A stretch of DNA of 64,000 nt from Candidatus Versatilivorator sp. Its GTDB lineage: Bacteria > Acidobacteriota > Terriglobia > Versatilivoradales > Versatilivoraceae. Position numbers and translations under genes: made by a program. A model generated the notes under the pieces. That model was not told the origin of the DNA and searched no databases. It saw nothing but the letters and a program-made list of their open reading frames with translations. The DNA is taken from assembly GCA_965207735.1 (NCBI GenBank), contig OZ242296.1, positions 5,152,001-5,216,000 of the forward strand, written 5' to 3'. Within the stretch, counting starts at the first letter, position 1. Each line of letters begins with the position of its first letter. Positions 6,618 through 62,721 of this stretch are shown here, piece after piece.

Positions 6618-6880
6618 GGGCTTATCCCCCTCCTCTGCCTAAATCCGTAACCGAATGATTGAGAATTGTATAAGATAGGGGTGTTAAACAATGCAGCTGT
6701 TTTCGAGAGAAGGGGGACCGCCCGGGTCTGTAGGCGCAAGCGTTCGGGGGGCAGTGAGGACGTGCTGCCGCTTCCGCCCTTTTGAACGGGGCCAGGGACC
6801 AGGCAGCTTCCCAACCCTGCGCGTGCAGGCCGGATCCGTCGGCTCGAGGCAGCGGCCCACGGGAATCCTCGGAGGAAACC

Positions 6881-8467
6881 ATGAGCGTTACACGTCGCAA
6901 ATTCATGCAGGCCCTCACCGTTGCCGGGGGAGCGGGAGTGGCCGGCTCCTCTTCCGGCCTCCTGGCGGAGCCGCGTTCTGACAAGCACACTGGGCGCAAG
7001 AAAAGGACCCTCTATTTCAATGACGCCCGGCATTACTACCTCTACGTGTTCGAGCCTCCCATGACCATGGAGGACGCTTGGGTGCCCATTGACGAGGTGG
7101 CCGGAACGGCCGTGGACACCTTTGTCTACGGGGTGGAGAGAGGGGACGGCCTTTTCTATCCCTCCCGGGCAGGCCAGCGTTTCGGGGCCGACATGCGTCC
7201 CTTCGAGCTCACCGCCTACTGGCGCACCTGGGAGAACATGCAGAGCCTGATCGACCGGGGTCTGGATCCGCTGACCGTGCTGATCGACCGCGCCCATCAG
7301 AAAGGGATGGATTTCTTCGCCAGTGTGCGCATGGCCTCCTACGGGGGGCTGGAAAGCAAGTACAAGGTGCCCGAGGGCGGCCGGGGTCTGGCCCATGAGT
7401 TCGTGCGGGACCATCAGTACGCGGTGCTGAAGGAACTGGCCACCGAATACGCCACCGAGGGAGTGGAGCTGGACTTCGCAGCGGCGCCGGGGGGAATGCC
7501 TCTTTATGTGAGGCCGGAGGATTTGTCGGCCACGACCCCGGTGCTGACCGAGTGGGTAGCCAAGATCTCCGATGCCGTCCGCAATCGGCCCGGCAAGCCG
7601 GGCCTGGTTGGGGCGCGGGTCTATCCGACCGAAGAGATGTGCCTCAAGCAGGGCCTCGACGTACGGACCTGGATTCAGGAGGGACTGGTGGACTACCTGG
7701 CCCCCATCCTCTATATCGATTTCACCCTGGATGTGGACATGCCCATCGATTGGGTCATCGAAGCGGCCCACGCCAAGGATATCCCCGTCTACGGCACCCT
7801 TCAGCCCTATATCAGAGACGAAGCCACCGGGTCGGCGGCGGCGGCTCCCAAGAGGATCTACCCCACTCCCGAAAACGTGCGGGCGGCGGCCGCCAATTAT
7901 TTGAGACGCGGCGCCGACGGCCTCTATGCCTGGTTCATGCAGTGGCCTTTGGGTGACACGGAGCGGCGCATCCTGACCGAGCTGGGAGACCCGGAGCTGA
8001 TTCGGGAAGCCGACAAGCACTACGTGCTTCACGCGCGCTCCGAGCGGGGCGTTGAAATGGGCTACCAGTCCAGTCTGCCGCTGAAGATTCCCGGACCCGA
8101 ACCCGGCAAGCGCTACCCCATTCCCTTCTCGATTTCAGACGATATCGAGGGCAAGGCGGACAGGATCCGCCAGGTCATTCTGAAACTGCATATCGACAAT
8201 CTGCTGACCTCCGACCGGCTGACGGTTCTGCTGAACGGCCAGTCGCTGGCAGACGAGATCTGCCTGCGCGACTACGCCGACAATATCGTTCCCTACCAGG
8301 GGCAGTGGCTGGAGTTTCACCTGCGGAAGGTGCGTCCCCGCAAGGGTGAGAACCTGCTGGAAATATCCCTGGATGAGCGCCCGCCTCACATGGGAGTGGG
8401 TATCTCGGTGAAGTGGGTGGAAGTCCGGGTCGACTACGGTTTCTACCCGACCACGCCGAAAGCCTAA
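6881..8467 (+). CDS. Tat-exported GHL10-like protein (tandem copy 1)
   Basis: GGAGG RBS before ATG 6881; TRRKFM twin-arginine signal; YFNDA, SVRM, EGVELDF, GADGLY motifs. Confidence 0.7.
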   Translation: MSVTRRKFMQALTVAGGAGVAGSSSGLLAEPRSDKHTGRKKRTLYFNDARHYYLYVFEPPMTMEDAWVPIDEVAGTAVDTFVYGVERGDGLFYPSRAGQRFGADMRPFELTAYWRTWENMQSLIDRGLDPLTVLIDRAHQKGMDFFASVRMASYGGLESKYKVPEGGRGLAHEFVRDHQYAVLKELATEYATEGVELDFAAAPGGMPLYVRPEDLSATTPVLTEWVAKISDAVRNRPGKPGLVGARVYPTEEMCLKQGLDVRTWIQEGLVDYLAPILYIDFTLDVDMPIDWVIEAAHAKDIPVYGTLQPYIRDEATGSAAAAPKRIYPTPENVRAAAANYLRRGADGLYAWFMQWPLGDTERRILTELGDPELIREADKHYVLHARSERGVEMGYQSSLPLKIPGPEPGKRYPIPFSISDDIEGKADRIRQVILKLHIDNLLTSDRLTVLLNGQSLADEICLRDYADNIVPYQGQWLEFHLRKVRPRKGENLLEISLDERPPHMGVGISVKWVEVRVDYGFYPTTPKA

Positions 8468-8504
8468 CACGTTGGCATCTGGCTAGCCCCTCCCGGAGAT
8501 CATC

Positions 8505-10091
8505 ATGAGTGTGACCCGTCGTAATTTCATGCAGGCCCTCACCGTTGCCGCCGGAGCGGGAGCAACCGGCTCCTCCGCCGGCCTCCTGGCGGAGCCGCGT
8601 CCTGAAAAGCACACTGGGCGCAGGAAACGGACCCTCTATTTCAATGACGCCCGGCACTACTACCTCTACGTGTTCGAGCCCCCCATGACCATGGAAGACG
8701 CCTGGGTGCCCATTGACGAGGTGGCCGGAACGGCCGTGGACACCTTTGTCTACGGGGTGGAGCGGGGGGACGGTCTCTTCTATCCCTCCCGGGTGGGCCA
8801 GCGTTTCGGCGCCGACATGCGTCCCTTCCCGATCACCGCCTACTGGCGCACCTGGGAGAACATGCAGAGTCTGATCGACCGGGGCCTGGACCCGCTGACC
8901 GTGCTGATCGACCGCGCCCATGAGAAAGGGATGGATTTCTTCGCCAGTGTGCGCATGGCCTCCTACGGGGGGCTGGAAGGCAAGTACAAGGTACCCGAGG
9001 GCGGACGGGGCCTGGCCCACGAGTTCGTGCGGGACCATCAGTATGCGGTGCTGAAAGAGTTGGCCACCGAATACGCCACCGAGGGAGTGGAGCTGGACTT
9101 CGCGGCGGCGCCGGGCGGGATGCCGCTGTTCCTGAGACCGGAAGATGTTCCCGCCATGACCCCGGTGCTGACCGAATGGGTGGCCAAGATCTCCGAAGCG
9201 GTCCGCAATCGGCCCGGCAAGCCGGGCCAAGTCGGAGTCCGGATCTATCCCACCGAGGAGATGTGTCTCAAACAGGGCCTGGACGTGCGGGCCTGGATCC
9301 GGGAAGGTCTGGTCGACTACCTGGCGCCCATGCTCTATATCGATTTCACCTTGGACGTGGACATGCCGGTCGACTGGGTGGTGGAAGCGGCCCACGCCAA
9401 GGATGTTGCCGTCTACGGCGTCTTGGCGCCCTACCTCGGAGACGAAGCCAGCGGAACCGACCCGGCGGCGCTCAAGATCCTCTTTCCCACGCCTGAAAAT
9501 TTTCGCGCCGCCGCCGCCAATTACTGGAGGCGCGGCGTCGACGGGCTGTACGCCTGGTTTTTCCGATGGCCGCTGCAGGACGGGGAGCGGCGGGTGCTGA
9601 CCGAGTTGGGGGACCCGGAGCTGCTCCGGGAAGCCGACAAGCACTACGTGCTACACCGCCGCTCCAAGGGGGCGGTTGAAATGGGCTACCAGGCCGGTTT
9701 GCCCCTGAGGATGCCTGCCGGCGATGCCGGCAAGCGCTATTCCATTCCCTTTTCCATATCAGACGATATCGAAGGCGGGGCGGAACGGATCCGGCAGGTT
9801 GTTCTCAAGCTCTACGTCGACAACCTGGTGACGGGCGATCGCCTTACCCTGCTGTTGAACGGTCAATCCCTGGCGCAGGAGATCTGCCGGCGCGACCATG
9901 CCAATCGCATCGATCCCTGGCTGGGGCAGTGGCTGGAGTTTCATTTGCGGAAAGTGAGGCCGCGTCAGGGGGAGAACCTGCTGGAAATTTCCCTGGATGG
10001 GCGGCCGGCGGGAATGGAAGGGAGGATTTCGGTAGAGTCCGTCGAAGTCCGGGTCGAATACGGATCCTATCCGACCAGCCCGAGAGTATAG
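8505..10091 (+). CDS. Tat-exported GHL10-like protein (tandem copy 2)
   Basis: TRRNFM signal; N-terminal half near-identical to 6881-8467. Confidence 0.7.
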   Translation: MSVTRRNFMQALTVAAGAGATGSSAGLLAEPRPEKHTGRRKRTLYFNDARHYYLYVFEPPMTMEDAWVPIDEVAGTAVDTFVYGVERGDGLFYPSRVGQRFGADMRPFPITAYWRTWENMQSLIDRGLDPLTVLIDRAHEKGMDFFASVRMASYGGLEGKYKVPEGGRGLAHEFVRDHQYAVLKELATEYATEGVELDFAAAPGGMPLFLRPEDVPAMTPVLTEWVAKISEAVRNRPGKPGQVGVRIYPTEEMCLKQGLDVRAWIREGLVDYLAPMLYIDFTLDVDMPVDWVVEAAHAKDVAVYGVLAPYLGDEASGTDPAALKILFPTPENFRAAAANYWRRGVDGLYAWFFRWPLQDGERRVLTELGDPELLREADKHYVLHRRSKGAVEMGYQAGLPLRMPAGDAGKRYSIPFSISDDIEGGAERIRQVVLKLYVDNLVTGDRLTLLLNGQSLAQEICRRDHANRIDPWLGQWLEFHLRKVRPRQGENLLEISLDGRPAGMEGRISVESVEVRVEYGSYPTSPRV

Positions 10092-11868: not shown

Positions 11869-13323
11869 CTACGCCACGATCTCCTTGATCAGGCGGCCGC
11901 CCAGGTCGGTCAGGCGCTTGAAGCGCCCGGCGTGATAGTAGGTGAGCCGCATGTCGTTCAGGCCCAGGCTGTGCAGCATGGTGCCGTGGAGATCGTGGAG
12001 GTGATAGACGTTCTCGGCCGCCTTGATGCCCAGCTCGTCGGTGTTGCCCACCACCGTTCCGCCCTTGATGCCGCCGCCGGCCATCCAGGCCACCATGGCC
12101 TCCTTGTTGTGGTCGCGGCCGGGATGGGACCGGAAGAAGTCCATGGAGTTATCGGCGGTGCGTCCGAATTCCCCGGCCCAGACCACCAGGGTCTCATCCA
12201 GCAGTCCCCGCTGCTTCAGGTCCTTGAGCAGCGCCGTGACCGGCTGGTCGGTCTCGTAGCCCCGCTTGCGGTGCTCCTCGGCGATATTTTCGTGGGAGTC
12301 CCAGCCGCCGCAATAGACCTGGACGTAGCGGACACCCCGCTCCACCAGGCGGCGGGCCATCAGGCACCGTCGAGCCATGGGCTCCTTGATCTTGTCGTTG
12401 AGGCCGTACATTTCCTTGATCTTGTCGGGCTCGCTGTCGATGTCCACCGCCTCGGGCACGGCGAACTGCATGCGGAAGGCCAGCTCGTAATTCTTCATGC
12501 GGGCCAGCAGGTTCTCGTTGCCGGGGTCGGACTTCAGGTAGGGTCGGTTCAGCCGATTGAGCAGCGCGATGTCGGCCTGCTGCTGCTCCCGGGTGACTCC
12601 CTGCGGAGGCTGGAGATCGAAGATAGGCGCCCCCACCGAGTTCAACAGGGTGCCGTGGGTGGCGGCCGGCAGATATCCGTTGGAGTAGTTGACCGCCCCG
12701 CCGGAGATTCGTCCCCGCTGGTCGGGCAGGACCACGAAGGCCGGCAGGTTCTGGCTCTCGCTGCCGAGCCCGTAAATGACCCAGGAACCGACCGAGGGAC
12801 TGCCGGGAATGGGGACGCCCGTGTTCATCATGAAGCAGGCCCCGGGATGGGCCTCCGAGTCGGTGTGGAGCGATCGGACCACGGCGATGTCGTCCACGCA
12901 GGTGGCCAGGTGGGGAAAGATCTCCGAAACTTCCATGCCGCACTGCCCGTGCCTTGCGAACTTGAAGGGGCTGCCCACGTAAATCCGCTTTTCCAGGCTG
13001 CCGTAGACGCGGGTGACCGGGGTCCCGTGATACTTGGCCAGCGCCGGTTTGGGGTCGAAGGTGTCCATCTGGCCGGGAGCCCCCTCCATGAAGAGAAAGA
13101 TGCAGGCCTTGGCCTTGGCGGCGAAGTGGGGTTGCTTGGGAGCCAGCGGGTCCGGAGCAGTATCGGCCGCCTGAAGCCAGCCGTCCCGGCAGAGCAGCGA
13201 CGAGAGCGCCAGGCTTCCCACGCCTCTGCCGAATCCGTACAGGAAGTCCCTGCGCCCCATCTCTCCCAGGCGCGGGTCCGGTCGTTCCACCCGTGAACAA
13301 ACCTCGAACTCACTCTTGGCCAT
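11869..13323 (-). CDS. DUF1501 family protein (Tat signal)
   Basis: GRRDFL; KAKACIFLFMEG.P.QMDTFDPKP; ARRLVERGVRYVQ; GWDSH; GEFGRT; GRDH. Confidence 0.92.
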   Translation of the reverse strand: MAKSEFEVCSRVERPDPRLGEMGRRDFLYGFGRGVGSLALSSLLCRDGWLQAADTAPDPLAPKQPHFAAKAKACIFLFMEGAPGQMDTFDPKPALAKYHGTPVTRVYGSLEKRIYVGSPFKFARHGQCGMEVSEIFPHLATCVDDIAVVRSLHTDSEAHPGACFMMNTGVPIPGSPSVGSWVIYGLGSESQNLPAFVVLPDQRGRISGGAVNYSNGYLPAATHGTLLNSVGAPIFDLQPPQGVTREQQQADIALLNRLNRPYLKSDPGNENLLARMKNYELAFRMQFAVPEAVDIDSEPDKIKEMYGLNDKIKEPMARRCLMARRLVERGVRYVQVYCGGWDSHENIAEEHRKRGYETDQPVTALLKDLKQRGLLDETLVVWAGEFGRTADNSMDFFRSHPGRDHNKEAMVAWMAGGGIKGGTVVGNTDELGIKAAENVYHLHDLHGTMLHSLGLNDMRLTYYHAGRFKRLTDLGGRLIKEIVA

Positions 13324-13374
13324 GATTGCTCCTCTTGCTTACCGTCATTACCGGACGCCCTGTTCAGGCAGAAC

Positions 13375-15933
13375 TCATTCCAGGAAGATGAACTCGTTCA
13401 TATTGACGAGAACCAGGCAGAGACGCGCCAGCAGATCGCCGCGGGGCTCTTTCCGCCTGTCCAGTGACTCGCCCAGATCGTTTCCGAAACGGATGGCCCG
13501 CAGCGTCACCTTGGGGGGAGACTCCGGATCGAGCCGATCTTGCCTCAGAAAGGCCAGGCACTCGTTGCGCTCCAGAGCCGAAGGAGGACGTTGAAAGGCC
13601 AGTTGGAAGGCATGCTCCACCTGGCGTTCGGAATCGTCTCCCGCCTCCCGCCGGATGCGGTCCGCCATGAAGCGGGCCTGCTGGTGGGAGAATCTGCTGT
13701 TGAGCAGGGTGAAGACCTGGGGGGTCACGGTGGTGACGTCCCTGACGGGGCAGCTCTCGTTGATATTGGGACCGTCGAACACCGCCACCATGGGGAGCTG
13801 CAAGGAGCGGCACTGCAGCACGTAGAGGCTGCGGCGGCTTCGTTCCGGGCGCGGCGACGGCTCCCACCACACCCCGGCGCGCTGCTGCACCGCGTCGTCG
13901 ATATCGGGGAAGAAGGGCGGACCTCCCACGGAGGGATTGAGTTGTCCGCTGACTGCCAACACGCTGTCCCGCGTGACCTCGGCTTCCAATCGGATGGGGT
14001 TTCGCCGCCACAGGTAGCGGTTGTCGCTGTCCAATCTCCGGTAGGCCTCCAGGTGGGGCGTTCGCAGGGATTGCCGGTAGACACTGGACTGCAGGATGAT
14101 CCGCTGCATCTCCTTGATGCTCCAACCGCTCTGGATGAACTGCCAGGCCAGCCAGTCGAGCAGCTCCCGGTGGACAGTGCCCCCGCCGTTCTTGCCCAGG
14201 TCGCTGGGCGTGGACACCAGGCCGCGGCCGAAATGGTACTGCCAGATCCGGTTCACCATCACCCGGGCCGTCAAGGGGTTGTCGGGGCTGGCGATCCATT
14301 CGGCCAGCAGCTTGCGGGAGCTTCCCCTCGAAGAGCGAATGTCCAGACCCTTGTAGTCCACCGGCCGGGAATGGCCGGTGACGGCGCTCAGGACTCCCGG
14401 TTCCACGGCCTCGCCCAGAAGCTTGTAGTTGCCCCCTTTCAGCACATAGGTGGTGGGGGGACCGGCGGTGTGGGCGCGGAAGCCCTGCGAGGCCACAAAG
14501 GCCATGGCCTTGTAGTAGTCGGGGCTGTTGGGGTTGGCGAAACGCTGGCCTTGTCGTGAAATCAGTCGCAGCCGTTCCACTTCCTCCTTGGCATAAAGGG
14601 ATCTCTTGGGGAAGGGGGTGCGTTTCAGATCGGAGACCACCCAGTCCTTGAGATCCTGGGGAGCCATGAGCTGGTAATGGGGAGCCACCCGGGCCGCCAG
14701 CCCGGCCTTGAACTTGGCGGCCTCCTCCTTGCGCTGTTCCAGCAGGTTCTTCCAGTCCTCGGCCTTCTTCTTCCATAGGCCGGGATCCAGTTCCGGAAGC
14801 TCGTAGGGGGTGAAGGGCACGGGTTCAGGGCCGACCGTCAGCGGAGCAAAGAAGGCTTCCATTCGGTAGTAGTCCCGCGTGGGAATGGGATCGTACTTGT
14901 GGTCGTGGCAGCGGGCACAGCCCAGGGTCATTCCCAGGAACACCGAACCCGTGGTTCCGACCACGTCATTGAGGAAGTCCCGTCGGGTTTGGGGCGAATC
15001 CACTCGCTGCACGAACACCCACTGGTGCAGGAACCCGGTGGCGATCTTGCCCTCCGCCCCATATTTTCTGTAGGCGTCTCCGGCGAGCTGCTGCCGGATG
15101 AAGCGGTCGTAAGGCATGTCCCGGTTGAAGGCTCGGACCACGTAGTCCCGGTAACGCCACATGTGGGGTCGGGGATAGTCGACGGCCTCGCCCACCGTGT
15201 CCGAGTAGCGCACCAGGTCCAGCCAATGCCTTCCCCAACGCTCGCCGTAGGCCGGATTGTCCAGCAGCCCCTCGACAGCGTCGCGGTAGGCGTCCTCCGA
15301 GGGGTCCTGGAGAAAGGCGGCCATGGCCTCGGGAGAGGGCGGCAGACCGGTCAGTCCGAAGTGGATCCGTCTCAACAAGGCGCGCCGGGAGGCCGGTGGG
15401 GCCGGCTCCATACCCTTTTTCTCCAGGGTAGCCAGGATGAAGGCGTCAATCGGATTGCGGACCCACTGATGCTGCTCTACCGTTGGGACCTCGGGCAGGG
15501 CCAACCGGGTCCAGGGCCAGCTCTTGGAGCCGCCCGAGGCGCGGTCCGCCGCCACATCGGCCGGCTTCAACCCGTCGATCCAGGCGGCGATGAGGCTGAT
15601 CTCCCCGTCCGTCAGCCGCGAGCCGTCCATCGGCATTGCGGGCTCGGTGTCGCCCTTGACTCTTGAGACCAAGGGGCTGGCGGCGCTGTTGCCGGCAATC
15701 ACCGCCGGTCCATCCAGCGCGCCGCCTTCCAGCAGAGCATCCAGCGTGTCGACCACCAGGCCGCTCTGGTGCATCTCGGCCCCGTGGCAACTCTGGCAGT
15801 GCTGGTCCAGAATGGGCCGGATGTCCCGCTCGAAGCTGATCTCGTCACTCTGGCCACGAGCGATGGGGACCAGGGATTGGGCTGACAGGACGAGAAGCGC
15901 GGCGAGGCAGAGGTGGCTGAACAAGTGGTTCAT
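13375..15933 (-). CDS. PSD1/planctomycete cytochrome c protein (DUF1549+DUF1553)
   Basis: CQSCH heme motif, NPIDAFI, YGERWGRHWLDLVRY, CARCHDHKYDPI, NPLTARVMVNRIWQ.HFGRG, C-terminal NEFIFLE. Confidence 0.92.
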   Translation of the reverse strand: MNHLFSHLCLAALLVLSAQSLVPIARGQSDEISFERDIRPILDQHCQSCHGAEMHQSGLVVDTLDALLEGGALDGPAVIAGNSAASPLVSRVKGDTEPAMPMDGSRLTDGEISLIAAWIDGLKPADVAADRASGGSKSWPWTRLALPEVPTVEQHQWVRNPIDAFILATLEKKGMEPAPPASRRALLRRIHFGLTGLPPSPEAMAAFLQDPSEDAYRDAVEGLLDNPAYGERWGRHWLDLVRYSDTVGEAVDYPRPHMWRYRDYVVRAFNRDMPYDRFIRQQLAGDAYRKYGAEGKIATGFLHQWVFVQRVDSPQTRRDFLNDVVGTTGSVFLGMTLGCARCHDHKYDPIPTRDYYRMEAFFAPLTVGPEPVPFTPYELPELDPGLWKKKAEDWKNLLEQRKEEAAKFKAGLAARVAPHYQLMAPQDLKDWVVSDLKRTPFPKRSLYAKEEVERLRLISRQGQRFANPNSPDYYKAMAFVASQGFRAHTAGPPTTYVLKGGNYKLLGEAVEPGVLSAVTGHSRPVDYKGLDIRSSRGSSRKLLAEWIASPDNPLTARVMVNRIWQYHFGRGLVSTPSDLGKNGGGTVHRELLDWLAWQFIQSGWSIKEMQRIILQSSVYRQSLRTPHLEAYRRLDSDNRYLWRRNPIRLEAEVTRDSVLAVSGQLNPSVGGPPFFPDIDDAVQQRAGVWWEPSPRPERSRRSLYVLQCRSLQLPMVAVFDGPNINESCPVRDVTTVTPQVFTLLNSRFSHQQARFMADRIRREAGDDSERQVEHAFQLAFQRPPSALERNECLAFLRQDRLDPESPPKVTLRAIRFGNDLGESLDRRKEPRGDLLARLCLVLVNMNEFIFLE

Positions 15934-24139: not shown

Positions 24140-26677
24140 GTGTTGAGACCGATCTCGATCGGGGTGGCTCTTTTCACCGGTTTGGCGGCTTTCGCAGGCG
24201 CGGCTGAGGATACCTCGGTCCGGTTCCGGACGCAGATCAAACCCATCCTGGAGACCCACTGCCTTTCCTGCCACGACACCCGGACCCACAACAGCGGCCT
24301 GGTGCTGGAAACGCCGGAGGCCATTCTCCGGGGAGGCGCCCTCAACGGCCCCGCCGCCCAGCCCGGCAATGCCGCATCCAGTCCCCTGATCCAGTACCTT
24401 CGGGGTGAGAAGCAGCCGGCCATGCCCCTGGGAGAACCACCCCTGCCTGAGGAGGAGATCGGTCTGATCGCCGCATGGATCGACCAATTGCCGCCCCCGG
24501 CCGATGCTTCACAGGGAAAGGGAGCGGCCTGGCCCTTCACCCGCCTGAAGCCGCCGGGCATCCCGGCAGTTCGAAACCGGCACTGGGTGAGAAACCCCAT
24601 CGACGCCCTGGTCCTGGCCAAGTTGGAGAAACAGGGGATGCAACCGGCGCCGCCGGCTTCCCGGCGGTCCCTGCTGCGCCGGGTCTATTTCGATCTGACC
24701 GGCATGCCACCCACTCCGGAAGCCATGGCACGGTTTCTCGGTAACCCGGGCCAGGATGCCTATGAGCAGGAAGTCGAGAAACTGCTGCGCAATCCCCACT
24801 ACGGGGAGCGTTGGGGCAGGCACTGGCTCGATCTGGTTCGCTACGCCGATACCGAAGGGGGTGGCCCCGACTACCCTCGCCCCCACATCTGGCGCTACCG
24901 GGACTACGTCATTCGCGCTTTCAATCAGGACCGCGCTTACGACCGTTTTATCAAGGAGCAGCTGGCCGGCGATCTGAATGCGGTTTACGGCGCGGAGGGC
25001 AAACTCGGACTCGGGTTCCTCAATCTGGGGGTCGTCGGAGAGGACTCCGGGCGGCAGAATCTGCTGGTCGATTTGGTCGCCACCACCGGATCGGTCTTTC
25101 TGGGGCTCACCCTGGAGTGCGCTCGCTGTCACGACCACAAGTACGACCCCATTCCCACTCGCGACTACTACCGGACCGAGGCCTTCTTTTCCTCCCTCAG
25201 CCTGGGTGAAGCCGACCTTCCCTTTACTCAGTACGAGGGTCCCAGTCTCGATCCTGAAGCCTGGAAAGAGCGTGCCGAAGCCTGGCAGCGGGAGTTGGAC
25301 CAGCGCAAGGAGTTGAAGGAGAAGACCACGGCGGAATTTCTGAAGCGCCTGGAAAAGCCATTCCACCTGGTCGGAGGGCAGGACCTGAAGGACGGTGTGG
25401 TGCCGCTGGGCGATGCCGGCGAACTGAAGACGGCTCTCAATCGTGGAGTTCTGTTCACGCGGGAGGAGAGGGAACTCTATCGCCTGATCGAGAGACAGAA
25501 CACCGCCTACGGCAACGTGAGCCATCGGGATTACTTCAAGCCCAGGGTGCACGCCGCCCAAGAAATTCAGAGCCGGTATGGGGGACGTCGTCCCCACCCC
25601 GCCATGCCCACCACCTACATCCTGATGGGCGGCAATCCGGAATCCAGAGGGGAGGCGGTGCAGCCGGGTTTTCTGAACGTGCTTGAGGAGCAGTTTCCGT
25701 TCGAGAGCGAGAATCCCAGACAGAACCCCCGGCAGACGCTGGCCGAGTGGATCGCCCATCCCGACAATCCCTTGACGGCCCGAGTCATGGTGAACCGAAT
25801 CTGGCAGCACCATTTCGGCGAGGGGCTGGTGCGGACTGCCAGCGACTTCGGGCGGAACGGATCCGGAACCCTACACCCCGAGTTGATCGATTTTCTGGCC
25901 TCCTATTTTGTGCGGAACCGTTGGAGCATCAAGGCCGTGCATCGATTGATCCTGCAATCCAATGTCTACCGGCAGTCGATTCGGAACCCCCGCGCCGAGG
26001 AGTACCGCTCCCGGGACCCCGACAACCGCTACTTCTGGCGGAGCAATCCGCTACGATTGGAGGCCGAGGCGATCCGGGACAGCATTTTGGCCGTGAGTGG
26101 AGAGTTGAATCCCAGGATCGGAGGACCGGGATTCTTTCCCAAGGTCGAGGAAGACCTGTTGTGGGAGGGGGGAACCTGGTGGAAACCCTCCAGTCGGGAG
26201 GAAAGGAATCGGCGCACCGTCTACATGTGGCAGGGGCGGTCTTTTCAACTGCCCATGATGAGCGTCTTTGACGGAGCCAATCTGAACGAAAGCTGCTGGA
26301 GGCGGCAAGTGACCACCGTAGCCCCGCAGGTGTTCGCCCTCTTCAACAACCCCTTCGTGCACGAGCAGAGTCGCAGGATGGCGCGGCGGATCGTCCGGGA
26401 GGCAGGACCCGACCCCCAATCCCGACTGAAGCGGGCCTTCCAGTTGGCCCTTCAGCGGGATCCCACGCCCGAGGAATATTCCCGCGGGCTGGACTTTCTG
26501 ACGCGGCCCCTGACGGCCAGCCAGCCTCCCATAGAGTTGGCCAAGGGGCCCGCTACTGAGCCGGGGGTGGGCTCGGAGGCTTCGTTGCGGCTGCCGCCGC
26601 CTGCCGGAGACCAGGACCGGCTGGCCGACCTCTGCCTGGTTCTGTTGAACATGAACGAGTTCATTTTCTTGGAGTGA
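24140..26677 (+). CDS. PSD1/planctomycete cytochrome c protein (DUF1549+DUF1553), second copy
   Basis: CLSCH, YGERWGRHWLD, CARCHDHKYDPI, NPLTARVMVNR, NEFIFLE; GTG/TTG start approximate. Confidence 0.9.
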   Translation: MLRPISIGVALFTGLAAFAGAAEDTSVRFRTQIKPILETHCLSCHDTRTHNSGLVLETPEAILRGGALNGPAAQPGNAASSPLIQYLRGEKQPAMPLGEPPLPEEEIGLIAAWIDQLPPPADASQGKGAAWPFTRLKPPGIPAVRNRHWVRNPIDALVLAKLEKQGMQPAPPASRRSLLRRVYFDLTGMPPTPEAMARFLGNPGQDAYEQEVEKLLRNPHYGERWGRHWLDLVRYADTEGGGPDYPRPHIWRYRDYVIRAFNQDRAYDRFIKEQLAGDLNAVYGAEGKLGLGFLNLGVVGEDSGRQNLLVDLVATTGSVFLGLTLECARCHDHKYDPIPTRDYYRTEAFFSSLSLGEADLPFTQYEGPSLDPEAWKERAEAWQRELDQRKELKEKTTAEFLKRLEKPFHLVGGQDLKDGVVPLGDAGELKTALNRGVLFTREERELYRLIERQNTAYGNVSHRDYFKPRVHAAQEIQSRYGGRRPHPAMPTTYILMGGNPESRGEAVQPGFLNVLEEQFPFESENPRQNPRQTLAEWIAHPDNPLTARVMVNRIWQHHFGEGLVRTASDFGRNGSGTLHPELIDFLASYFVRNRWSIKAVHRLILQSNVYRQSIRNPRAEEYRSRDPDNRYFWRSNPLRLEAEAIRDSILAVSGELNPRIGGPGFFPKVEEDLLWEGGTWWKPSSREERNRRTVYMWQGRSFQLPMMSVFDGANLNESCWRRQVTTVAPQVFALFNNPFVHEQSRRMARRIVREAGPDPQSRLKRAFQLALQRDPTPEEYSRGLDFLTRPLTASQPPIELAKGPATEPGVGSEASLRLPPPAGDQDRLADLCLVLLNMNEFIFLE

Positions 26678-26737
26678 AGCTTCGCCGAAGTCCCAGGTTT
26701 TTTTCGGCTCCGCCAGGAGAACCTTGCAAGAAAAACC

Positions 26738-28192
26738 ATGAAGCCTCCCAATCACGAATATTGCGGTCGATTCGAAGCCCCCGCTGCTTCCATGGGTGAG
26801 CTGGGGCGCCGGGATTTCCTGTTTCGCCTGGGACGCGGCGTTGGCGGCGTGGCCCTTTCCTCGATGCTTTTTCGGGAGGGCCTGCTGGGCGCCGGGGCAA
26901 CCGACAATTCGCTGGCGGCCAGGAAGGGCCATCGGCCGGCCCGGGCCAAGTCATGCATTTTCCTGTTCATGGCGGGCGGTCCCAGCCAGATGGACACTTT
27001 CGATCCCAAGCCGTTGTTGAACAAGTACCACGGCACCCCGGCCTTCGACGGCGCTCAGTTGCGCACCTCCGGAAGGAAGCTGCTCTACGTGGGAAGCCCC
27101 TTCCGCTTCAACAAGTTCGGCCGGAGCGGCACCGAAGTTTCGGACATGTTTCCCCATCTGGCCACCTGCGTGGACGACATGGCGGTGGTGCGGTCGATTC
27201 ACACCGACTCCGACGCCCACTCCCTGGCCACCTTCCTGATGAATACAGGGGCAGCGCTGCCCGGCAGTCCTTCGCTGGGTTCCTGGACGGTCTACGGGTT
27301 GGGAACCGAGAACGAGAATCTGCCGGCCTTCGTGGTGTTTCCCATCAGCGGCACCGGGGGCTTTGGCGGGCCCCAGAACTGGTCCAACGGATACCTGCCG
27401 GCCATCTACCAGGGAACCCCCCTCAAGTCGGAAGGTGTTCCCATCGTGGATCTGCAGCCCCCTGCGGGCACCACCGCCGGACGTCAGGAATCCAATATTC
27501 AGTTACTGAACCACTTCAACCGGCCCTACCTGGAAGGCCACCCGCTGAAGAGCGACCTTTGGGCCCGGATGAAGAACTACGAACTGGCCTTCCGCATGCA
27601 GATGACGGTGCCGGAAGCGTTGGACGTGGACAAGGAGCCGCCGGCCATTCGGGAGCTGTATGGACTCGACAACAAGATTACCGAGCCCATGGGCAGACGG
27701 TGCCTCATGGCCCGGCGACTGGTGGAGCGGGGCGTGCGCTTCGTGCAAATCTACTCCCGGGGCTGGGACTCCCACCAGGATATCGCCGGCCAGCACCGCC
27801 TGCGAGGCCTGGAAACCGACCGGCCCATGGCGGCCCTGTTGAAGGACCTCAAGCAGCGGGGCCTGCTGGATCAGACCCTGGTGGCCTGGGGAGGAGAATT
27901 CGGCCGCACTCCCCAGAGCCTGCCCCACAACTGGAAGGCCCCCGGGCGCGAACACAACAAGACGGCCATGCCCATGTGGTTCGCCGGTGGCGGCGTGAAG
28001 GGAGGCACGGTTGTGGGAGCCACCGATGAGCTGGGCGAGAAGGCGGTCGAGAACCCCTACCATCTCCACGATCTGCACGCCACCTTCCTTCACCTGATGG
28101 GGTTGGACGACATGCGCCTTTCCTACTACCACGCCGGCAGGTTCAAGCGCCTCACAGACCTGGGTGGCAACATCATCAAGGAGATGGTTTAG
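26738..28192 (+). CDS. DUF1501 family protein, second copy
   Basis: GRRDFL; RAKSCIFLFMAGGPSQMDTFDPKP; GWDSH; GEFGRTP. Confidence 0.92.
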   Translation: MKPPNHEYCGRFEAPAASMGELGRRDFLFRLGRGVGGVALSSMLFREGLLGAGATDNSLAARKGHRPARAKSCIFLFMAGGPSQMDTFDPKPLLNKYHGTPAFDGAQLRTSGRKLLYVGSPFRFNKFGRSGTEVSDMFPHLATCVDDMAVVRSIHTDSDAHSLATFLMNTGAALPGSPSLGSWTVYGLGTENENLPAFVVFPISGTGGFGGPQNWSNGYLPAIYQGTPLKSEGVPIVDLQPPAGTTAGRQESNIQLLNHFNRPYLEGHPLKSDLWARMKNYELAFRMQMTVPEALDVDKEPPAIRELYGLDNKITEPMGRRCLMARRLVERGVRFVQIYSRGWDSHQDIAGQHRLRGLETDRPMAALLKDLKQRGLLDQTLVAWGGEFGRTPQSLPHNWKAPGREHNKTAMPMWFAGGGVKGGTVVGATDELGEKAVENPYHLHDLHATFLHLMGLDDMRLSYYHAGRFKRLTDLGGNIIKEMV

Positions 28193-33124: not shown

Positions 33125-33369
33125 GCCCGCATTTCTCACCAGGCCGCTGGTGCCATGACGAGAAGTAGTTTATCTTCAGTACTTTGATTGGCTCTCTGGT
33201 AAGGGCTTGCGGGTAACAGACGGCGCTGGGCATGCCCTGGCTTGTCTTTTTCCCTTCAGCGCGCACATGCTCCCTCGCGCGTAGTGACCGCTACGCTCTT
33301 CGATCGCGAGCACGCCCTGAAGGGAAAAATCCTGCGCCATGATCATGCCCCCTGGTGAGAAATGCGGGC
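33125..33369. mobile_element. 245-bp MITE (intron-free copy)
   Basis: Perfect 19-bp TIRs GCCCGCATTTCTCACCAGG...CCTGGTGAGAAATGCGGGC; no transposase; second copy at 61339-62452. Confidence 0.9.
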
Positions 33370-40457: not shown

Positions 40458-40797
40458 GAGGTTATCCACGAAGGCCCGAAAAGAAATCCACGAAGGGACA
40501 CCAAGGATCACGAAGAATATCGAGGATCAATTAAATTTGGTCTAATACAAATTATTTTGTTCTTTTATTGACGCCCGGTTCTTCTTCTTGTATTCTTCAA
40601 ATTCCAAGCGAGCCTGCCAAGTGTGAGGCACTTGACAGGCCCTTAGCATGACCCATCCTATGCCGGAGGACGAGCCCGCCTGATCAGCATTATACTGCAT
40701 CAACAGTTGGTTCCAGCCCGGCATAGGACTCCTTCCCTATTTCGCTGTTCCTCATGTAGGGATTCATGTTCGTGGTCGTTAGGGAATACGGGAGCAG

Positions 40798-49744: not shown

Positions 49745-50110
49745 CCGGCCCCCGCCCTGGTGTGCGGATCATACATAGAGTGAAACAATCAGAAATCGAT
49801 CAACCCTTCGCGAACTTGGTACCCCGTCGCGGCAAACCTCAGCGCCTTAGTGCCCCTTCGTCGTTCTTCGTGTCCCTTCGTGGATAAGTCTTTTTCTTTT
49901 GTCTTTTTTCTTTTGTTTCAGGCAAGCCGCGCCCCTGCCCTGCCGTGCAGATCATACGAGAGTGAAACAATCAGAAATCGACCAATCCCTTCGCGACCTT
50001 GGTATCCCGTTACGGTTCACCTCAACGCCTTAGTGTCCCTTCGTCGTCCTTCGTGGCCCTTCGTGGATCACTCTTTTCCGTTTGTCTTTTTTCGGTTGTT
50101 TCAGACAAGA
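49745..50110 (+). repeat. Two tandem ~183-bp units of a dispersed repeat
   Basis: GATCATAC..AGAGTGAAACAATCAGAAATCGA...CCCTTCGTGGAT...TTGTTTCAG starts at 49767 and 49950; truncated unit at ~49681-49745; inverted copy at 60908-61091. Confidence 0.9.
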
Positions 50111-58643: not shown

Positions 58644-58927
58644 GCCGTTCCCCTTGGGAGCGCGGGCCTCCGGCCCTACTGCTCCTGAAAGCACAGCTCC
58701 ACCGCCGGTCTCCCGGCGTGCCCGCCAACCCTGCCTTCTTGGACTCCTGACCGTAATCCATGCTTGAATGGCGCACTGAGAATTGTGGTTGGCTGCCGCG
58801 GCGCCGAGTCGAACGGGAGGGCGCATGATACCATAGTCACCGGTTATCCTTTCCGCTTGGTGCCCCGATGAGAATTGGGGGCCGGGGTCACGCTAAAAGG
58901 CGGTTCCTTCCGCGAACGATTCGGTCC

Positions 58928-60982
58928 ATGAGTGCTGTCGATCCAATTCCGGCAGGGTTCCAGGGGCAACGGGTAGTTGCCTTCGAAAGCCGTTTGGCCG
59001 AGGAAATGGCCTCATTGATCTCCAGACACCAGGGTGTGCCCCAACTGGCGCCGGCCATGTCGGAGGTCCCGCTGGAAGAGAACGTCGGCGCCATCCGATT
59101 TGGGGAAAGGCTGCTCCGGGGAGAGGTTGCGGTGGTGGTCTTCATGACAGGCGTGGGAACCCGGACCCTGATGGAGGTGCTGCACAGGCGCTACCGGCAA
59201 CGGGACCTGCTTCGGGCCCTGGCCGGAGCTACCCTGATCGCGCGCGGCCCCAAGCCCATTGCAGCCTTGCGGGCCCTGGGGCTGTCCACGGTCATTCCCG
59301 TTCCCGAACCCAATACCTGGCGAGAAGTTCTGGAAGTGATGGATACCAGCGAGGGTTGCCCCAACCTCTCCGGATTGACGGTGGCCGTTCAGGAGTATGG
59401 GACCCCCAATCGACCCTTTCTGGAAGAACTCGGGAAAAGGGGAGCCGAGGTGCTCCAGGTCCCGGTCTATCGGTGGACGCTGCCCTCCGACACCCGTCCC
59501 CTTTGTCGTGCCATCGATGCCCTGATCGCCGGAACCTGCCAGGTTGCCCTGTTTACCAATTCCGTGCAGGTGTCGCACCTCTTCCAGTTGGCAAGCCAGC
59601 AGCGGAAGGCCGCTGCGTTGCGCCACGCGTTGAACGGTACGGTAACCGCTTCAATCGGGCCCAATTGCAGCCAGGCGCTGCGCCGCGAGCTGGTGCGAGT
59701 GGACCTGGAAGCCGGCCAGCCCAACATGGCCTGCCTGGTGGAGGAGGCCTCCAGGAGAGGCGCCGGCATGACGCGGAGCAAAGAAGCCTCCCCTTCTTCC
59801 AGAGTGGTCGTTCCGGTGGAGGTGGACTCGGGAACTAAGGACCCGTCGACCTGCAACCCGTTGGACAGCAGCGTCTTCATGAGAGCCTGCCGCCGCCGGT
59901 CCACCGAATACACGCCGGTCTGGCTCATGCGCCAGGCCGGGCGCTACATGGCGGAGTACCGGGCTATTCGCTCCAGGACCTCATTTCTCGGCTTGTGCAA
60001 GAACTCCGACCTGGCAGCCGAAGTCACCGTGACCGCGGCCCATCGTCTCGGAGTGGATGCCGCCATCATCTTTGCCGATATCCTTCTGATCGTGGAGCCC
60101 ATGGGCTTGGGTCTCACCTTCGAGGACGGGGAGGGGCCCAGCATCCAGGGGGTGATCCGTTCACAGGCGGAGGTGGATCGTCTGTCGGAAGTCAACCCGG
60201 AGGAATCCCTGTCCTTCGTGTTCGACGCCGTTCGCAAGGCTCGGGCAGGCCTGCGGTCCGACCTGCCGCTGATTGGGTTTGCCGGCGCCCCCTTTACGCT
60301 GGCCTCCTACATCACCGAGGGGGGAGGGTCCAAGAATTACATCCACACCAAGGAGCTGATGTACCGCCATCCCGGAGCCTGGGACAGCATGATGCAGTTG
60401 ATTTCCCGGAGCGTGACCCGGTACCTCAACGGGCAGATTCGCGCCGGGGCGCAGGCCGTTCAGCTCTTCGACAGCTGGGCCGGCTGCCTCAGCCCCGAGG
60501 ACTACCGGCGCTCGGTGCTGCCCTACACCGTCCAGGTGATCGAAAACATCAGGCCCCGAGTACCGGTCATCTACTTCTCGACGGGTACCGGCGGATACCT
60601 GGAGTTGGTTGCGTCGACCGGGGCCGACGTGATCGGGGTGGACTGGCGCATCGACTTGGCTCGGGCCTGGGCCAAGATCGGCGAGGGGCAGGCGGTGCAG
60701 GGCAACCTGGATCCCCTGGCGCTGCTGGGGGATCCCGGGAGCATCGCGGACAAAGCCGGGGAAATCCTGGATCGGGTTGGAGGGCGGCCGGGCCACATTT
60801 TCAATCTGGGCCACGGCGTTCTGCCCCAGACCCCGGTGGATCACGTGGTGAGACTGGTGGACGCCGTTCACGAGCGAAGCCGGAAGGCAGGGTCATCCGA
60901 AGGAGGGGCTTGTCTGAAACAACCGAAAAAAGACAAAAGACTTATCCACGAAGGGGCACGAAGAACGACGAAGGGACACTAA
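58928..60982 (+). CDS. hemE: Uroporphyrinogen-III synthase / uroporphyrinogen decarboxylase fusion (HemD-HemE)
   Basis: N-terminal AFESR, FMTGVG, ARGPKP, VPVYRW, SIGP (HemD); C-terminal PVWLMRQAGRYMAEY, IGFAGAPFTLASY, QGNLDP, HIFNLGHG (HemE). Confidence 0.93.
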   Translation: MSAVDPIPAGFQGQRVVAFESRLAEEMASLISRHQGVPQLAPAMSEVPLEENVGAIRFGERLLRGEVAVVVFMTGVGTRTLMEVLHRRYRQRDLLRALAGATLIARGPKPIAALRALGLSTVIPVPEPNTWREVLEVMDTSEGCPNLSGLTVAVQEYGTPNRPFLEELGKRGAEVLQVPVYRWTLPSDTRPLCRAIDALIAGTCQVALFTNSVQVSHLFQLASQQRKAAALRHALNGTVTASIGPNCSQALRRELVRVDLEAGQPNMACLVEEASRRGAGMTRSKEASPSSRVVVPVEVDSGTKDPSTCNPLDSSVFMRACRRRSTEYTPVWLMRQAGRYMAEYRAIRSRTSFLGLCKNSDLAAEVTVTAAHRLGVDAAIIFADILLIVEPMGLGLTFEDGEGPSIQGVIRSQAEVDRLSEVNPEESLSFVFDAVRKARAGLRSDLPLIGFAGAPFTLASYITEGGGSKNYIHTKELMYRHPGAWDSMMQLISRSVTRYLNGQIRAGAQAVQLFDSWAGCLSPEDYRRSVLPYTVQVIENIRPRVPVIYFSTGTGGYLELVASTGADVIGVDWRIDLARAWAKIGEGQAVQGNLDPLALLGDPGSIADKAGEILDRVGGRPGHIFNLGHGVLPQTPVDHVVRLVDAVHERSRKAGSSEGGACLKQPKKDKRLIHEGARRTTKGH

Positions 60983-61091
60983 GGCGCTGAGGTTGGCCGC
61001 GACGGGGTACCAAGTTCGCGAAAGGATTGTCGATTTCTGATTGTTTCACTCTCGAATGATCTGCACGGTAGGGCAGGGACGGGGGGCGGCT
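60908..61091 (-). repeat. Inverted copy of the ~183-bp repeat
   Basis: Reverse complement aligns with the 49925-50108 unit over its length. Confidence 0.88.
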
Positions 61092-61171: not shown

Positions 61172-61246
<75 letters not shown>

Positions 61247-61258
61247 GATTCTAAGACA

Positions 61259-61318
61259 GGGCTATCGATCAGGACGCGGCCGCTTTCTACGGTCGAGCTT
61301 GGTCGATAGCCCTTTTTT
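61259..61318 (+). terminator. Intrinsic terminator after tRNA-Gly
   Basis: GGGCTATCGATCA...TGGTCGATAGCCC followed by TTTTTT. Confidence 0.75.
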
Positions 61319-61338
61319 GTGGAGAACGACAGGGGTTA

Positions 61339-62452
61339 GCCCGCATTTCTCAGTGCGCCATGGAAAGGCGCCTTCTTCCAACGGGTGCGAAACCCGTCCA
61401 ACAACTGTCGCTCCGGTTGGTAGCAGCCAGGGCGGATCATGGAGGTAACGATATGGTCTGAAGCCCTCTGGTGTCAAAGGGCCGCTTAAGGCGGTTCAGC
61501 GAGCATGCGGGCCGGAACGCGAGTGAACGTCGAGCAGGCCTCGAAACGGGCAATGCGGGGGCCGACCCACCTGAGAAATGGGGAAGGCCGAAGACGGAGG
61601 GGGAAGCGAGCGACGCGGGCACCCCTTTGGACCCGCCGGGGTAGTGGCGCTGGCACGCATGGAAGGGGAAGAAGGCAGCAACATGGGAAGCCCTGTGGGT
61701 GGTGAGGCACGCACCGAACCGGAAGCTCGCGAGAGTCAGTCTAGGCCGACAGGGTGGCGGAGAGGCCTGTAGTACCGGAGAAGCCGGGTAATACCGGTGG
61801 AGGGAAGGGGCCTCAGGTGAGGAGCGGTGACCGAAGGGGGAAGGGTCCCGGGAGTGGCGAAAGCCTGAAACCCCGACCAAAAAAGGGCCGGAGACTCCGG
61901 AAGCATCACATGCAAAAGTGAAAGGGTCGTCGGAGGAGGACGGCGTCGTCAGGGCATCAACAGGCCTGGCGGCAACCCGGGAGCGGAAGTGGATGGAGTG
62001 GGGGACGGGTGCCAATCCCATAGGAGTCGTCCACGGATGCGAGCGGGGACCTGTGTGCGAGACGCATGATCCCACTGGAGAGCCGAGATGCGGGAAAACC
62101 GCACGTCCGGTTCGGAGAGCGGGGACTGGAAACGTGATAAGGGAGCCGGACTGAGGCCCGAAGCGAAAGCGACGGAATAGCCACCGGACCCTATAGTCAA
62201 CGCGCCAGTCCTCGACTCTACCCAGGTCGCTGGTGCCATGACGACAAGTAGTTTATCTTCAGTACGTTGATTGGCTCTATGGTAAGGGCTTGCGGGTAAC
62301 AGACTGCGCTGGGCATGCCTTGGCTTGTCTTTTTCCCTTCAGCGCGCACATGCTCCCTCGCGCGTAGTGACCGCTACGCTCTTCGGTCGCGAGCACGCGC
62401 TGAAGGGAAAAATCCTGCGCCATGTTCATGCCCCCTGGTGAGAAATGCGGGC
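61339..62452. mobile_element. MITE copy 2, interrupted by a group II intron
   Basis: Removing 61353-62221 restores a 245-bp element colinear with 33125-33369 (nine substitutions by eye, no indels). Confidence 0.92.
61353..62221 (+). ncRNA. ORF-less group II intron (IIB-like ribozyme, 869 nt)
   Basis: 5' GTGCG; D3 GCGGAGAGGCCTGTAGTACCGG..CCGGGTAATACCGGTGGAGGGAAGGGGCCT; D5 GAGCCGAGATGCGGGAAAACCGCACGTCCGGTTC; D6 ending CCAGTCCTCGACTCTAC; no RT ORF. Confidence 0.95.
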
Positions 62453-62721
62453 TAGTCTGAAAACCGCTGGCCGGCTTCCTCAGTTGCCAGCAGGTTGCAG
62501 CCTGCCTGGTTGGCAAACCGCATCCGGCAATGGAACACCCCCTCATTGACCTCTTCCAGGTCGGCCCTGAGGCAGGTGAAGGGCTCCATGTGTGTGGGGG
62601 TGTCGTGCACGCCGTAATCCATGCTCTCCGCCCTCCGCCGCTGCCGGGTCAGCGCGACCACGGCCAAAGCGAGCCCCTTGGCCAACAGTATGATTGACAG
62701 GTAGAGATAGAAGTGGGTCAT
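62452..62721 (-). CDS. Small hypothetical membrane-anchored protein (89 aa)
   Basis: N-terminal hydrophobic helix followed by RQRRR; GC3-rich codons; stop codon abuts the MITE end. Confidence 0.5.
   Translation of the reverse strand: MTHFYLYLSIILLAKGLALAVVALTRQRRRAESMDYGVHDTPTHMEPFTCLRADLEEVNEGVFHCRMRFANQAGCNLLATEEAGQRFSD

Follow-up and report, generated by a model that had tools for sequence, protein, structure and literature searches.

An 869-nt group II intron without an open reading frame (ORF) lies in the 64,000-nt stretch of the Candidatus Versatilivorator sp. genome analysed here (the window), and it belongs to a set of 28 copies placed 13 bp inside IS1380-type ends. We consider it very probable that this intron retrohomes into these ends with a reverse transcriptase (RT)/maturase borrowed from related introns resident in the same genome. 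The element is real and active-looking.

Structure of the window intron

The intron begins with GTGCG, ends with CTCTAC and matches two Rfam models, group-II-D1D4-4 over domain I (80.8 bits) and Intron_gpII over domain V (41.2 bits). An ORF scan found no sense-strand frame longer than 78 aa within it, and the RT frame is absent. Boundaries, missing RT frame and the matches to both models, the Infernal-type check that an earlier note on this DNA had recommended, bear out the ORF-less group II intron which that note had proposed. The hallmarks of the group are present (GUGYG...AY ends, the AGC triad of domain V and the bulged A of domain VI) and the ribozyme core is intact. The minimum-energy fold of the whole intron, with a low z of −2.1, was of limited use. 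The remnant in domain IV may serve as a protein-binding site. We found two features of the IIE/IIF lineage, an alpha′ segment at the tip of a stem-loop and a 5-nt domain V loop (criteria from PMC3753933), and the structure fits IIE/IIF, with E and F taken jointly from structural features. The hairpin-seeking class IIC was ruled out by the 7-nt exon-binding site 1 (EBS1) together with the covarying EBS2 described below.

Among 24 listed runs, 20 contain the stretch or part of it, and six are recorded as RNA. Contigs from four RNA runs (three studies) span 26–28 of 30 bins, including the domain IV specific to ORF-less introns, mostly at 90–99% identity, with a depth that cannot rank expression, and we do not count this coverage in favour of the intron being expressed. 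No exon-ligation, lariat or circle joint is listed in the contigs of the four RNA runs covering related copies, and contigs cannot decide splicing.

Table 1 Features of the intron, its target element and their surroundings (positions in the window)
Feature	Position	Strand	Basis and remarks
tRNA gene upstream of intron	61172–61243	+	Anticodon GCC read from sequence; Rfam; context only
Hairpin and T-run after tRNA gene	~61258–61319	+	Read from sequence; absent from terminator scan listing
Left target duplication	61336–61339	+	TTAG; right side CTAG at 62452–62455, hence imperfect at the window copy
5′ exon, first 13 bp of IS1380-type terminal inverted repeat	61340–61352	+	IBS1 61346–61352; IBS2 61339–61343, one base into target duplication
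ORF-less group II intron, IIE/IIF-like, 869 nt	61353–62221	+	Rfam; 28 genomic copies at ≥99.6% identity
Alpha	61406–61412	+	Alpha′ partner 61609–61615 in terminal loop; 169/175 cells pair; fold
Internal domain I helix, 5′ strand, contains GCGGGC	61504–61515	+	Partner 61650–61661; 271/275 cells pair
EBS2, corrected position	61547–61553	+	Pairs with −14 to −10; shuffles reaching score: 0/5000 (31 types), 1/5000 (16 target families)
EBS1 (hairpin loop, TGAGAAA)	61572–61578	+	Covaries with exon about −8 to −1, 0/5000 shuffles; 144/175 cells pair
EBS3 (G; pairs with +1 C)	61644	+	Watson–Crick complement of +1 in 29/30 types with a call
Domain IV, frameshifted remnant of RT-ORF start	61841–62077	+	Common to all 8 ORF-less introns with this backbone
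Domain V	62079–62114	+	AGC triad 62081–62083; 5-nt loop; Rfam
Domain VI, long, bulged A at 62215 (7 nt before 3′ end)	62115–62219	+	Fold z = −4.9
Remainder of 243-bp IS1380-type MITE	62222–62451	+	Right inverted repeat 62434–62451 empty
Intron-free copy of window MITE	33126–33368	+	Uninterrupted junction

The target element

The parent of the target is a 1698-bp insertion sequence (IS) with terminal inverted repeats and an IS1380 transposase (NF033539, 410.6 bits; cut-off 180). The genome holds 19 near-identical full-length copies, six of them carrying the intron, and identical 4-bp flanks border 13/14 intron-free and 6/6 intron-bearing IS copies. The 243-bp MITE is non-coding, resembles IS1380 only in its 17–20 bp ends and is multicopy: 15 full-length copies lack the intron and 15 carry it, with identical flanks in 8/15 and 13/15, respectively. 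These features place the parent element in the IS1380 family and its 243-bp derivative among the MITEs.

The target duplication is 4 bp long (YTAR) and lies just outside the inverted repeat, so the element proper in the window extends from 61340 to 62451. A 19-bp inverted repeat starting with G, as the earlier note had it, includes one base too many on each side: G61339 and C62452 are part of the target duplication, and the G is replaced by A at 5/29 occupied sites. The empty allele named in that note (33125–33369) held up: its match to the 3′ part extends over 239 nt at 95% identity, and no base is gained or lost at the junction. This MITE is intron-free, and in the occupied MITE of the window the right end is empty.

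Elsewhere in the window, a 704-aa ORF spans 58868–60982 and presumably resembles a uroporphyrinogen-III synthase and decarboxylase fusion. Long, diverged inverted and direct duplications (12158–15520 and 24529–27909; 6870–9334) are 70–91% alike and are probably paralogous genes.

Insertion sites across the genome

BLAST recovered 29 full-length ORF-less copies from the genome, 28 at an identity of at least 99.6% and one at 90.5%; 22 of the 28 are identical to the window intron. All 28 sit at the same distance inside an IS1380-type end-repeat, with a 5′ exon that is exact in 27 and has a single change in one, and with a 3′ exon beginning CC. Tabulating the 5′ flanks of all copies thus returned one common site 28 times and not scattered, unrelated sites. 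The occupied elements comprise 15 MITEs of 243 bp, six full IS, four shorter derivatives and three solo ends. The MITE had been taken for the homing target; with only 15/28 copies in the 243-bp MITE, the target is more broadly the end-repeat of the autonomous IS1380 and its derivatives. Both ends are used (MITE, 11 left and 4 right; IS, 4 left and 2 right), none of the 25 elements with two ends has both occupied, and about 120 exact target sites in the genome remain empty.

Among the 15 occupied MITEs we distinguished 14 haplotypes (median of 8 differences), which carry nearly invariant introns, and we favour independent insertion at the different haplotypes. The window copy and G000:5027609 share one MITE haplotype, and this pair may therefore not be independent. 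The common site of 28/28 copies, the use of both ends and the 14 haplotypes among 15 strongly support the specific homing postulated from the window alone. Misassembly is unlikely, since the junction recurs 28 times in the genome and G005, G009 and G011 have the same ORF-less intron at this very position.

An IS1182-family element with a CTAG duplication, found at 13 places in G000 (e.g. C1:675623-677210, L167), adjoins an IS1380-type end in 10/13 copies. Exact repeats adjoining it contain the intron in 7/10 cases, compared with 20/137 elsewhere (Fisher p = 2.8 × 10−4), and all seven of these introns adjoin that end of the IS1182 element which lies upstream of the transposase gene. At G000:C1:572756 and 331226, repeat ends run on into no more than the first 7 or ~20 intron bases, likely deletion scars or aborted insertions.

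Exon-binding sites covary with their targets

We compiled 105 insertions (some places counted twice), which reduced to 38 intron types; seven with an unlocated motif were dropped, leaving 31 types in 16 target families. Covariation scores were compared with those from 5000 shuffles. As the relatives are kin, shuffle counts overstate significance, and the contrast between EBS2 candidates is still clear.

The TGAGAAA motif proposed as EBS1 proved sound: it occupies a hairpin loop, complements exon positions −7 to −1, a match found for such a 7-mer in 1.1% of shuffled domain I sequences, and covaries with its targets (Table 1). The hexamer GCGGGC (61507–61512), proposed as EBS2, does complement −14 to −9, yet 40% of shuffles contain a 6-mer of this kind and the intron itself has two. 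It is nearly invariant, lacks covariation with the target (1776/5000 and 1511/5000 shuffles as good) and folds into an internal helix, so that folding of the presumed EBS loops upheld TGAGAAA and displaced GCGGGC. Pairing of this helix was tabulated in 25 introns, after removal of one mis-cut row of 26, and G–C is replaced by A–U in 9/25. Covariation with exon region −18 to −9 instead falls on 61547–53, whose register shifts by ~1 base between families (70/100 cells pair in the best fixed register). All three motifs, EBS1, this EBS2 and EBS3, fit the site and show covariation with the targets in relatives.

Orientation bias and candidate helper proteins

We observed that occupied sites run along the local leading strand in 24/29 cases (binomial p = 5.5 × 10−4), five running against this orientation, and empty sites in 41/120, a set that includes partner ends and is not independent. 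In two-ended elements, the end oriented along the leading strand is the occupied one in 21/25. Origin and terminus as placed by GC skew, at 4.51 Mb and 0.73 Mb of 5.26 Mb, divide the genome unevenly, which renders the leading-strand calls approximate. A leading-strand bias is predicted by endonuclease-free retrohoming into the lagging-strand template, as described for RmInt1 and RmInt2 (PMC4615759).

Searching for an RT-encoding sister intron and for an IS with the same inverted repeats, both anticipated in the earlier note, yielded the 19 IS1380 copies and 15 RT introns in the genome, 13 of family B, one of family C and one of family A. The family A intron has the same EBS1 as the window intron and occupies the same position in a diverged IS1380 copy. 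Family B (one of 13 frameshifted) is located in a repeat unrelated to IS1380, and the single family C RT intron in a palindromic repeat. The sister protein is a 452-aa RT/maturase (TIGR04416, 332.9 bits; cut-off 300) composed of RVT_1 and GIIM only, with the endonuclease domain absent; compared with plasmid proteins, its best matches are 45–54% identical and carry no class label. Close intact RT sisters occur in 4/5 relative genomes tested, and G048 has only a distant RT (26% identity) alongside two ORF-less copies. In G009, the sole intact close sister seen targets another IS and the A-type sister is interrupted, suggesting that a helper need not share the target. Absence of the RT ORF, co-residence of related RT introns and many copies at matched sites mark the element as an ORF-less and putatively trans-mobilised intron.

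The family B target is a repeat of CACGAAG-like units (window 60935–61084, 49777–50109 and 40479–40515; 476 loose matches genome-wide), and its copy at ~60944–60960 in the window is empty. Family C introns (G000:C1:4589468, 1135573, 4261108) lie in the arm of a perfect palindrome contained in an 18-copy repeat; one encodes an RT, one is an ORF-less chimera and one is a 117-nt internal-deletion form.

In the proposed route of spread, the sister RT/maturase would bind the domain IV remnant of the ORF-less intron, the intron RNA would reverse-splice into the lagging-strand template at the replication fork, and the nascent strand would prime cDNA synthesis. Because the two sites of an IS or MITE face in opposite directions, one would always be favourable. 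The intron-split end is likely unusable by the transposase: splicing cannot repair a DNA end, and occupation would thus inactivate it. Should split ends indeed be dead, the intron would hold a very active IS family in check.

Exchange of domain I

We compared trees for two parts of the intron. For domains V–VI, eight ORF-less introns form one clade (100/99 support), whereas for domain I they scatter among RT introns by target family. AU tests rejected a single ORF-less clade for domain I (p = 1.2 × 10−4) and target-family clades for the tail (p ≤ 8 × 10−6), p values that are not blind tests, as the idea of exchange was formed after viewing the alignment. All eight share the domain IV remnant and a distinct V–VI tail. 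B-type ORF-less copies occupy three different sites in G004 and one in G008, and domain I of B- and C-type ORF-less introns matches RT introns at 97.9–98.8%, a similarity that extends for hundreds of bases beyond the EBS loops. The single ORF-less C-type copy is 96–100% identical to the RT-encoding C intron in columns 1–400 and 50–60% identical after column 450, turning from RT-C-like to ORF-less-A-like in between. One ORF-less 3′ backbone thus bears the domain I of three RT-intron target families.

This conflict between trees suggests retargeting by recombination, in which the ORF-less 3′ backbone would change target by homologous recombination, taking domain I from RT-encoding introns. The simplest reading would be that the ORF was lost once, long ago, and that domain I was then acquired three or more times, with the direction of these acquisitions and the single-copy assemblies provisional. 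As the closest RT-intron relatives of the tail lie in another phylum and not among the co-resident sisters, activity in trans would need a relaxed protein. An evenly poised proposition goes further: the backbone would be a long-lived chassis, derived from an RT lineage unlike the present helpers, that repeatedly captures a whole domain I from an active RT intron in a one-step target switch, and the wider lineage would have been re-aimed repeatedly at IS1380, IS1634 and presumed ISAs1-like ends, a parasite that may curb IS spread. Domain I exchange, if a true retargeting route, is the natural counterpart of targetron re-aiming.

Alternative explanations

The copies could also descend from one or a few insertions that multiplied passively, through transposition of intron-bearing MITE or IS units or gene conversion between repeats. 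The window copy and its partner with the identical haplotype would fit such a history, and the IS copies are too similar to separate events. Yet the nearly invariant intron occupies left and right ends, four element kinds and 14 distinct haplotypes among 15 MITEs, its occupied end follows replication direction in 21/25, and transposase would be expected to act poorly on a split end; passive multiplication is largely refuted, and we hold it to be quite improbable. Scarcely credible is integration by the ribozyme without a protein, or by host enzymes only: cDNA synthesis requires a reverse transcriptase, the domain IV remnant is conserved, and close intact RT sisters are found in all relative genomes tested except G048. 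That genome, with its distant RT beside two ORF-less copies, speaks for the protein-free route, as does a publication on a ribozyme that integrates itself without protein (PMC11754743).

Homing could be real while the ORF-less target families arose through separate ORF losses or point mutation of the EBS motifs rather than exchange of domain I. Mutation of EBS is a published route in Thermosynechococcus (PMC2882425), and the C-type chimera is a single copy that could be an assembly join. The domain IV remnant and distinct tail common to 8/8 ORF-less introns of this backbone, the similarity of domain I to RT introns far outside the EBS loops and the B-type copies at four sites in two genomes argue against this explanation, which we regard as unlikely.

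Relation to known introns

The probable retrohoming of an ORF-less intron into IS1380-type ends with a borrowed protein is a variation on known intron behaviour and not a new system. Homing to a transposon end is already published for RmInt2 of Sinorhizobium meliloti GR4, which homes into ISRm17 inverted repeats (PMC4615759; PMC5894124). In both cases, all copies lie in IS inverted repeats, the endonuclease domain is absent, each element offers two opposite-strand sites and there is a lagging-template bias; partial interchangeability of related intron proteins, reported for RmInt2, is a further likeness. RmInt2 encodes its own RT, belongs to class D and has 7 copies, whereas the spreading form here is ORF-less and IIE/IIF-like, with 28 copies in IS1380 ends, MITEs and solo ends.

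The ORF-less TeI3 introns of Thermosynechococcus elongatus spread in trans with diverged EBS families (PMC2882425). They resemble the present case in one ORF deletion followed by trans spread through ‘driver’ proteins, in families with differing EBS, in insertion into IS and in ORF remnants in domain IV. TeI3 differs in being CL/IIB1 with an endonuclease domain. Its ORF-less and ORF-bearing members belong to distinct EBS families, and their change of target is put down to divergence of EBS; in the present case, EBS families are common to ORF-less and RT introns, and domain I was apparently exchanged. The main text of that paper never uses the term ‘inverted repeat’.

With bacterial class E/F introns (PMC3753933), the window intron shares alpha′ in a terminal loop, the 5-nt domain V loop, EBS1/2/3, the lack of an endonuclease domain and a long domain VI, the last an F tendency. 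That work judged EBS2 dispensable for splicing and guessed at a role in homing, with which the EBS2 covariation seen here fits; the 31-type natural series maps EBS1/2/3 of an E/F-like intron and makes the role of EBS2 testable in homing. ORF-less introns have been noted to expand in some genomes and to show a lagging-strand bias (PMC8919778), and a 2015 review regarded ORF-less bacterial introns as rare (PMC4424553). In a literature search that covered few subscription journals, neither group II introns in the end-repeats of IS1380, IS1634 or MITEs nor an exchange of domain I among ORF-less introns of bacteria came up as the subject of a paper. Two known strategies, homing to IS end-repeats and trans spread of ORF-less introns, are combined here at an unusual scale, with 29 ORF-less and 15 RT-encoding introns in one genome.

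The wider lineage

Of 267 stretches the best 80 were kept; among these, MAGs under the labels Ca. Versatilivorator and Terriglobia are the closest records with a name, and the nearest RT-intron relatives of the tail are records labelled Gemmatimonadota, two of them in IS1380 ends of the same kind. Across the phylum, the 3′ backbone was matched in 1/300 other genomes at E ≤ 1 × 10−25. In another family (G313, L166), an ORF-less copy with 71% identity is likewise placed 13 bp inside an IS1380 end.

At 54 loci with both boundaries, an inverted partner covers the site in 18, is absent in 30 and is an edge or short match in six. The IS families hit are IS1380 (L145), IS1634 (L099, L101, L105, L107, L143) and an IS1380-like element below cut-off (L117), besides MITEs; the target at L116 is a 1.7-kb element that matches DDE_Tnp_1 and DDE_Tnp_1_assoc weakly and that we take to be ‘ISAs1-like’. 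We rejected a lineage aimed solely at IS ends, given the 30/54 loci lacking an inverted partner and the use of other repeats by families B and C in the genome; end-targeting is thus frequent, not universal.

A second, independent ORF-less lineage of 721–723 nt (L022, L024, L076; G047, G055) has its own target, again preceded by YTAR and CCC. RT introns at seven loci (L100, L125, L133, L134, L136, L138, L147) form head-to-tail tandem arrays with up to 5 starts per locus, EBS3 being C in one group and U in others. IS elements have inserted into ORF-less introns at L055 (G009) and L164 (G313), so that parasitism goes both ways.
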